64,000 nucleotides of DNA from the NCBI GenBank assembly GCA_951406725.2, contig OX597827.1:7316001-7380000 (forward strand), in the 5' to 3' direction. The notes under the pieces are model-generated. The model made no database searches. It was not told where the DNA came from and saw nothing but the letters and a program-made list of their open reading frames with translations. A program made the translations under genes and the position numbers. Positions 40,711 to 41,202 of this stretch are shown here, piece after piece. The DNA comes from Octopus vulgaris (lineage: Eukaryota). Every line of letters starts with the position of its first letter. Position 1 is the first letter of the stretch.

Positions 40711-41202
40711 ATAAATGAAAGAATGGAGTTGAACGATGATTTAACAAAATTCCTTTATTTTCGACATATGTTTCGAAGGCTGCATATTCCTAATTTCGAA
40801 GGAATAAGGGGTGCATTATGCTGCCTATAGTAGAAGACACATGCCTAAGGTGGCATGCTGTGGGACTGAAACCCACACCATGTGGCTGCAAAGTGAGCTT
40901 CTTAACCACACAGCCATGTCTACATGGATGAAACATTGGCATAATGCACCCCTTATTCCTTCGAAATTAGGAATATGCAGCCTTCGAAACACATGTCGAA
41001 AATAAAGGAATTTTGTTAAATCGTCGTTCAACTCCATTCTTTCATTTATTTGTATTTAAAAAAACACACAAATTTCCACACGAAAGCACGTGATCTCTAC
41101 CTTTAGCATGTAGCTTCAACCGTGTTTTTCTGACGTGAATTTGCTACCCAGGTATCGGTTAAACAAATTATCCATACTAAGATAATTCATTCAACTACTT
41201 AA
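40711..41202 (+). mobile_element. (TA)n-embedded fold-back element, family H5: 111-bp inverted arms around a captured local fragment
   Basis: Arms at 40711-40821 / 40939-41049 (2 mismatches). The right arm contains the HHR 3' half gcagccttc-GAAAC-acat-GTC. Spacer 40825-40939 copies 37478-37592. Confidence 0.85.

Follow-up and report, generated by a model that had tools for sequence, protein, structure and literature searches.

The fold-back insertion and its setting

The window (the whole stretch of 64,000 nucleotides of Octopus vulgaris DNA that was analysed; contig OX597827.1, positions 7,316,001 to 7,380,000) contains a fold-back insertion at about 40711-41200 that is flanked by a TA tract on each side. 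The insertion consists of two inverted arms, a stretch of foreign DNA between them and a tail that continues past one arm only. The sequence of arm and tail has stops in all three sense frames, and no reverse transcriptase or GIY-YIG gene is evident among the 123 stop-to-stop frames of the window. Four of 24 listed public runs were aligned to the segment 40760-41192 only, from the inner half of the left arm through nearly all of the tail: the contig sets X1 (organism A; 80% of the set was read) and X4 (organism B), and the raw-read runs X21 and X22. The features are as follows (pLTR denotes a putative assignment, see below).

37478..37592, minus strand: donor, the head end of an old diverged SINE copy, plus at most 23 nt beyond the conserved head
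40560..40712, no strand: (TA)n tract bordering the target site on the left, read from the sequence; a target duplication is unreadable within the tract
40711..40826, minus strand: left arm, an inverted 5'-truncated pLTR piece, of which the last 2 nt are common to the donor
40825..40939, plus strand: templated patch, 114/115 identical to 37478-37592, with 112 nt outside the arms
40939..41049, plus strand: right arm, a sense pLTR piece, whose inner end falls 5 nt short of that of the left arm
41050..41200, plus strand: one-sided tail of about 150 nt, family sequence on the right only, with depth over 41050-41192 in X1 and X4
41201..41280, no strand: (TA)n / (TATG)n tract bordering the target site on the right, read from the sequence

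In the self-comparison of the window, the arms (40711-40821 and 40939-41049) form an inverted repeat in which 109 of 111 positions agree, the two mismatches being 40737/41023 and 40768/40992, and the DNA fold has a z-score of -27 against 100 shuffles. The left arm follows its repeat family for 5 nt beyond 40821, to 40826 (16 X1 contigs and 17 X4 contigs have a loose end past this position), so that the left junction has a microhomology of 2 nt, the right junction one of 1 nt, and the part of the insert that belongs to neither arm measures 112 nt (40827-40938). These results agree with the first-pass annotation, which had reported arms of 111 bp with two mismatches, a 114/115 match of the enclosed DNA to 37478-37592 and 1-2 nt of microhomology at the junctions. 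The left arm thus has 5 inner nucleotides that are absent from the right arm and the right arm has the 150-nt tail that is absent from the left, and since each arm has family sequence that is missing from the other, neither is a simple snap-back copy of its partner. Each arm also departs from the family at a single position of its own. In the right arm this is 40992, at which the base of the left arm makes up 98% of the X1 depth; in the left arm it is 40737, a CpG change whose partner 41023 is without a listed variant.

Outside both TA tracts a direct repeat was observed (40502-40574 and 41279-41351, 63/73 alike, partly TA run), which is too diverged for a target duplication of the element; an older duplication in tandem is its probable origin.

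Local origin of the patch

The patch and its donor lie on the same strand at a distance of 3347 nt and differ at a single position (40849 G, 37502 A). A BLAST comparison of the patch with the window returned 17 hits, of which 15, besides the patch itself and the donor, are SINE pieces that are 72-83% alike and none of which reaches the last 15 columns of the patch. Bases that are common to patch and donor and were seen in at most one other copy occupy 9 of the 92 well-covered columns. Among the 15 pairs listed in the self-comparison (≥ 92%, ≥ 40 nt), patch and donor form the sole pair that was not placed by eye in a repeat family. The insert derives from the 37478 locus, as had been deduced earlier from the private substitutions of that copy, and with a near-identical copy nearby and overlaps of 2 nt and 1 nt it is a locally templated insertion.

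Other sources were rejected: a larger tandem duplication, because the match ends sharply at both sides; the nearest SINE copy (40397-40487), which is only 79% alike; an abundant young SINE subfamily, the depth in the bin 40925-40939 being explicable by the lone arm base 40939; and the reverse direction, with the spacer as the original and 37478 as the copy, because the donor sits inside a whole SINE. At the one mismatch the base of the spacer occurs in 13 of 14 other SINE pieces, and the sole piece with the base of the donor is the copy whose extension resembles that of the donor, so no polarity is drawn from it. One X4 contig covers 40825-40916 with two differences, at a depth of 52 and with 14 unmatched letters ahead; it is probably the donor locus in organism B and is then silent on the presence of the insertion there.

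The donor SINE is about 79% like its family and has motifs that we take to be A- and B-box-like, judged by eye against the consensus; a search for tRNA genes by ARAGORN in 36500-41500 gave none. It had also been argued that the copied segment runs past the SINE into flanking sequence. The local origin of the patch stands, but this 'flank' is less clearly unique than supposed, which weakens the argument about the template: several SINE copies carry about 11 further family bases in the supposed flank region, and the 23 nt in question resemble the sequence after the SINE copy 24658-24748 (5 of 5000 random stretches of the window reach as high a score). The old SINE copies at 24749-24780 and 37570-37598 show a similar extension past the usual head end, which hints at a longer-headed SINE subfamily.

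The repeat family of the arms

A total of 5195 contigs aligned in X1 and 5109 in X4, some being SINE pieces, with heavy depth over the arms and the tail. From the raw-read runs no read aligned in X21 and 81 did so in X22, where they are confined to the tail end and show it as in the window, followed by a TA run. The X22 reads on 41151-41192 are 90-95% like the tail end and contain tandem units of a tail of about 50 nt plus a TA-rich run (38 start places), which we read as a minisatellite, derived from the end of the tail, in a more distant genome. Metagenome contigs were also scanned for exact patterns of the arm and of the tail, with 0 hits for either.

The longer family copies, represented by the 16 X1 and 17 X4 contigs mentioned above, run past 40826 into shared sequence with an agreement of 0.97-0.98. 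The reverse complement of this sequence (the loose-end consensus, inspected by eye) holds CTGATGA, the motif of a hammerhead core, preceded by a T-rich strand that by eye could pair with the bases after the cleavage triplet. Many family copies retain the complete core. In the present copy the left arm extends from the 5' strand of the predicted hammerhead helix II (8 pairs in the left-arm fold) as far as its inner end point, and the right arm contains the 3' strand of that helix (40974-40985), GAAA at 40986, a short helix III and the cleavage triplet ending at 40997. With the family base at 40992 the loop of helix III becomes palindromic, a trait given for the hammerheads of Penelope-like elements (PLEs) in the available part of PMC4209133. 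A type I hammerhead is therefore predicted in the pLTR of the family, its core being absent from the present copy; the insert lies at the site of the missing core, as the first-pass annotation had proposed, and the longer copies carry the core there. An Rfam scan of the window gave 0 hits.

Head-to-head 5'-truncated copies, a one-sided tail and a bias for microsatellites have been described for PLEs (PMC8557442, PMC3846280, parts available), and new PLE insertions are reported in the available part of 10.1101/2022.05.23.493040 to have a median length of 128 bp and microsatellite targets. At this locus we find an inverted 5'-truncated head-to-head copy, with at least seven such joints in other copies, and both an AT-rich/microsatellite target ((TA)n on both sides) and a dispersed high-copy repeat. 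The one-sided tail measures about 150 nt versus 30-40 nt in described PLE families; two other fold-back families in the window have one-sided extensions as well, of about 70-100 nt. The element fits a non-coding remnant of a Penelope-like pLTR insertion, a membership that rests on its anatomy and on the predicted ribozyme. The fold-back structure described earlier is real, and its element class, which had been left unnamed, would be this one. A MITE or TIR DNA transposon with cargo (Pack-type) was rejected since the family continues for 150 nt past one arm and arm lengths vary, and so was a non-LTR retrozyme, the locus being a single head-to-head pair without core and not a series of head-to-tail units with whole hammerheads.

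Variability of the head-to-head junctions

At least nine joints were listed for the family, of which seven connect the left arm with the right arm or the tail, the remaining two listed being a skip within arm/tail and the tandem in X22. All seven listed head-to-head joints (each a single contig with 22-29 nt on the shorter side and a likeness of 88) differ in the points where the arms stop, with an asymmetry of -22 to +194 nt. The linker is known for five of the seven (3, 3, 4, 4 and 11 nt), one 4-nt linker being read as family continuation. Such variable joints with short linkers have the look of end-joining. The arms had earlier been called constant, on condition that the structure recurs, a description that does not hold for these joints.

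The window contains seven other fold-backs, with loops of 0-22 nt, some of them perfect with loops of 0-2 nt. 18-mers taken near their centres matched only in their own families or in adjacent repeats, and no local capture was found among these seven. A local patch thus occurs in one of the eight fold-backs of the window (95% interval 0.3-53%, in a window that was chosen for the positive case). Long duplicated spacers escape the contig test, as contigs break there, and the test covers 13 of 336 loose ends. The suggestion of a recurrent capture of local DNA finds no support in this one case in eight or in the five known linkers of at most 11 nt, although the tests are small and a low-frequency habit is compatible with them. 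We consider it doubtful that the PLE family routinely closes its head-to-head junctions from nearby DNA or RNA, with a patch in several percent or more of thousands of fold-backs.

Further head-to-head remnants were observed in the window. Another fold-back family, with a minimal hammerhead-like motif, has copies at 42150-42334 and 28028-28258 and a one-sided extension of about 70 nt; at 42265 the inverted arm supplies the CTGA of the core, so that the inversion point appears to rebuild a core-like motif. Five further fold-backs of unlike sequence (19743-19960, 22887-22995, 28689-28887, 39820-39990 and 41350-41395; loops of 0-22 nt) were found, several of which adjoin microsatellites, and the window is rich in PLE-like head-to-head remnants. 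A hammerhead-like core with GAAA lies on the plus strand at 20170-20215, beside an (AAT)n tract and the 19743-19960 fold-back. At 48231-48321 and 48734-48894 two tail pieces of the 39827 family, 89% alike, face each other, and the 412 nt between them hold a SINE body. This inverted pair was rejected as a second case, because its tail ends face inward and the intervening 412 nt match SINEs at 72-86% only; it is probably the result of two separate insertions, possibly of one event with two cuts.

Formation of the insertion

Directly observed are the anatomy of the insertion, the family membership of arms and tail, the local origin of the patch and the variable junctions elsewhere. Very probably, in our view, the locus represents an insertion of PLE type in which a templated patch arose sporadically. 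That neither arm is contained in the other, with foreign DNA between them, is unlike what self-priming alone would give and is as would be expected from two cDNAs joined end to end.

According to the available part of PMC11167929, a purified PLE protein cleaves both DNA strands and extends each of them, favours AT-rich DNA, begins synthesis at two internal positions of the RNA, by which the tail is defined, and accepts RNA that is uncleaved. L1 insertions sometimes contain DNA templated near the site (three cases in the accessible part of PMC11702581). At the present locus the PLE enzyme would have cut both strands in the (TA)n tract, and both DNA ends would have been extended by cDNA off the same kind of RNA, one start lying at about 41200 (the tail end) and the other, an inner one, at about 41049. 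Both cDNAs would have read through the triplet at 40997, left uncleaved, and ended prematurely within hammerhead helix II, at points that lie 5 nt from each other. The two cDNA ends would then have needed head-to-head joining, as for a double-strand break, a process that in this family would usually involve a few bases. Here one end may have primed, by a microhomology of 1-2 nt, on a chromosomal site 3.35 kb off, copied about 113 nt and joined the other end. The twin cDNA synthesis, its timing at insertion, the DNA template and the identity of the polymerase are each parts of this route that we infer, and we give the exact route, twin cDNAs with a DNA-templated patch and happening once, about an even chance. 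Both mechanisms that the first-pass annotation had offered, template-jumping by the reverse transcriptase and repair of a break at the hairpin apex, are still viable and are weighed here.

Asymmetric arms could also be produced by a later break at the hairpin tip. In such a two-step course the PLE fold-back would come first, and the palindrome would later extrude a cruciform, whose tip would be cut, lose 5 nt more on one side than on the other and be repaired with nearby DNA as the template. A near-perfect palindrome of 111 bp is a plausible break site, and differences are sparser in the patch (1/230) than in the right arm plus tail (6/254, minority alleles), which would make the patch slightly younger (p = 0.13). 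Local templated insertions are moreover a common outcome of break repair (PMC11724301, available part). Against this course, the divergence of the patch (1/115) equals that of the arms (2/111) within the test (Fisher p = 0.62, of little power with three differences in total), the seven other fold-backs of the window persist without such a patch even where they are perfect with loops of 0-2 nt, and one additional event is required. We regard the two-step course as unlikely.

The orientation and the end point of the patch would also fit the copying of a SINE transcript, in which case the PLE reverse transcriptase moved from the left-arm cDNA onto a neighbouring SINE RNA and ran to its 5' end. 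A minus-strand SINE would give cDNA in the orientation of the patch, although such an agreement has an even chance of arising at random. The end of the patch lies 23 nt upstream of the A-box-like motif, near a possible start, and these 23 nt, being like the extension of a second SINE copy, could belong to a transcribed head; in most copies the conserved head nevertheless extends only about 11 nt beyond the box, so that 12 nt of the patch lie outside it. PLE reverse transcriptase primes internally without homology (PMC11167929) and that of L1 switches between RNAs (PMC11702581), as given in the available parts of these papers. An old donor about 79% like its family would be less likely to be transcribed, however, and a released RNA need not originate 3 kb away, so that a jump of this kind seems to us improbable.

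A chimera of assembly or library would be suspected because none of the 16 contig pieces listed of 10,375 spans either junction of the locus; a junction piece of 83 nt might have been long enough to appear with the longest X1 pieces listed, yet is absent there, and PLE fold-backs in TA tracts are difficult to assemble (PMC8557442, available part). The private difference in each arm and the one difference between patch and donor argue against an artefact, which would copy exactly, and so do the junction overlaps of 1-2 nt, far under any assembly overlap; we consider a chimera very unlikely.

Hardly credible, finally, is a dedicated capture system with constant arms and variable spacers, for which one clear case, the precedent of unrelated spacers in Adineta vaga (PMC3846280, available part) and the blindness of the contig test to long duplicated spacers can be cited, but against which stand the differing arm ends in all seven listed joints, the many copies that keep the entire core, the single patch among eight fold-backs in the window, and no array, no enzyme gene and no sign of spacer use.

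Implications

There are published precedents both for host DNA lying between pLTRs, in the rotifer Adineta vaga, and for L1 insertions that contain locally templated DNA. In the titles and abstract openings of the literature covered, with older Penelope papers outside this scope, no mapped local donor at a PLE inversion point was found. Taken singly, the event looks like a scar that ordinary repair left once in an element of known kind, not like a dedicated capture system. The value of the locus lies in the clue that it gives to how the head-to-head repeats of PLEs form, the origin of which is unsettled according to the available parts of PMC8557442 and PMC3846280, the latter proposing self-priming. 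A high-copy family with many head-to-head junctions makes the question of the inversion testable in one good assembly. Should the patching prove to be a habit of the family, the patches would: i) directly show that PLE inversions are two independent cDNAs joined end to end and not products of self-priming; ii) reveal whether the reverse transcriptase itself jumps templates; and iii) mean that PLE insertion continually generates short duplications of local sequence.

Comparison with known systems

The locus resembles the inverted-pLTR insertions of EN+ PLEs (PMC8557442, PMC3846280, PMC11167929, available parts) in its head-to-head truncation, one-sided tail, predicted hammerhead and AT-rich/microsatellite target. 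It is unlike described PLE insertions in that no ORF is left and in the length of its tail (about 150 nt versus 30-40), and 112 nt of foreign DNA from the vicinity lie at its inversion point, whereas the PLEs described in the accessible text have a short palindrome or an overlap there.

In Adineta vaga, unrelated spacers of 0.9-1.5 kb precede the 3' pLTR of Pen1, between the body and the direct pLTR, unrelated sequences lie between solo pLTRs, and an NRPS gene is framed by Pen3a (PMC3846280, available part). Variable host sequence is framed by PLE repeats in those cases as in ours; in the part of that paper available no donor is mapped, and here the segment measures 115 nt, lies at the head-to-head junction and has a donor 3.35 kb away.

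As in L1 twin-priming (PMC11702581, available part), both ends would be extended by reverse transcriptase and then end-joined, and extra or nearby DNA and short microhomologies occur at the junctions. The L1 cDNAs cover adjacent RNA segments, which gives a 5' inversion, whereas here both would cover the same segment, which gives a palindrome. Non-LTR retrozymes (10.64898/2026.07.22.740005, available part) are likewise non-coding, carry a type I hammerhead and are PLE-related; they consist of head-to-tail tandem units with whole ribozymes, whereas the present locus is a head-to-head pair without the core.
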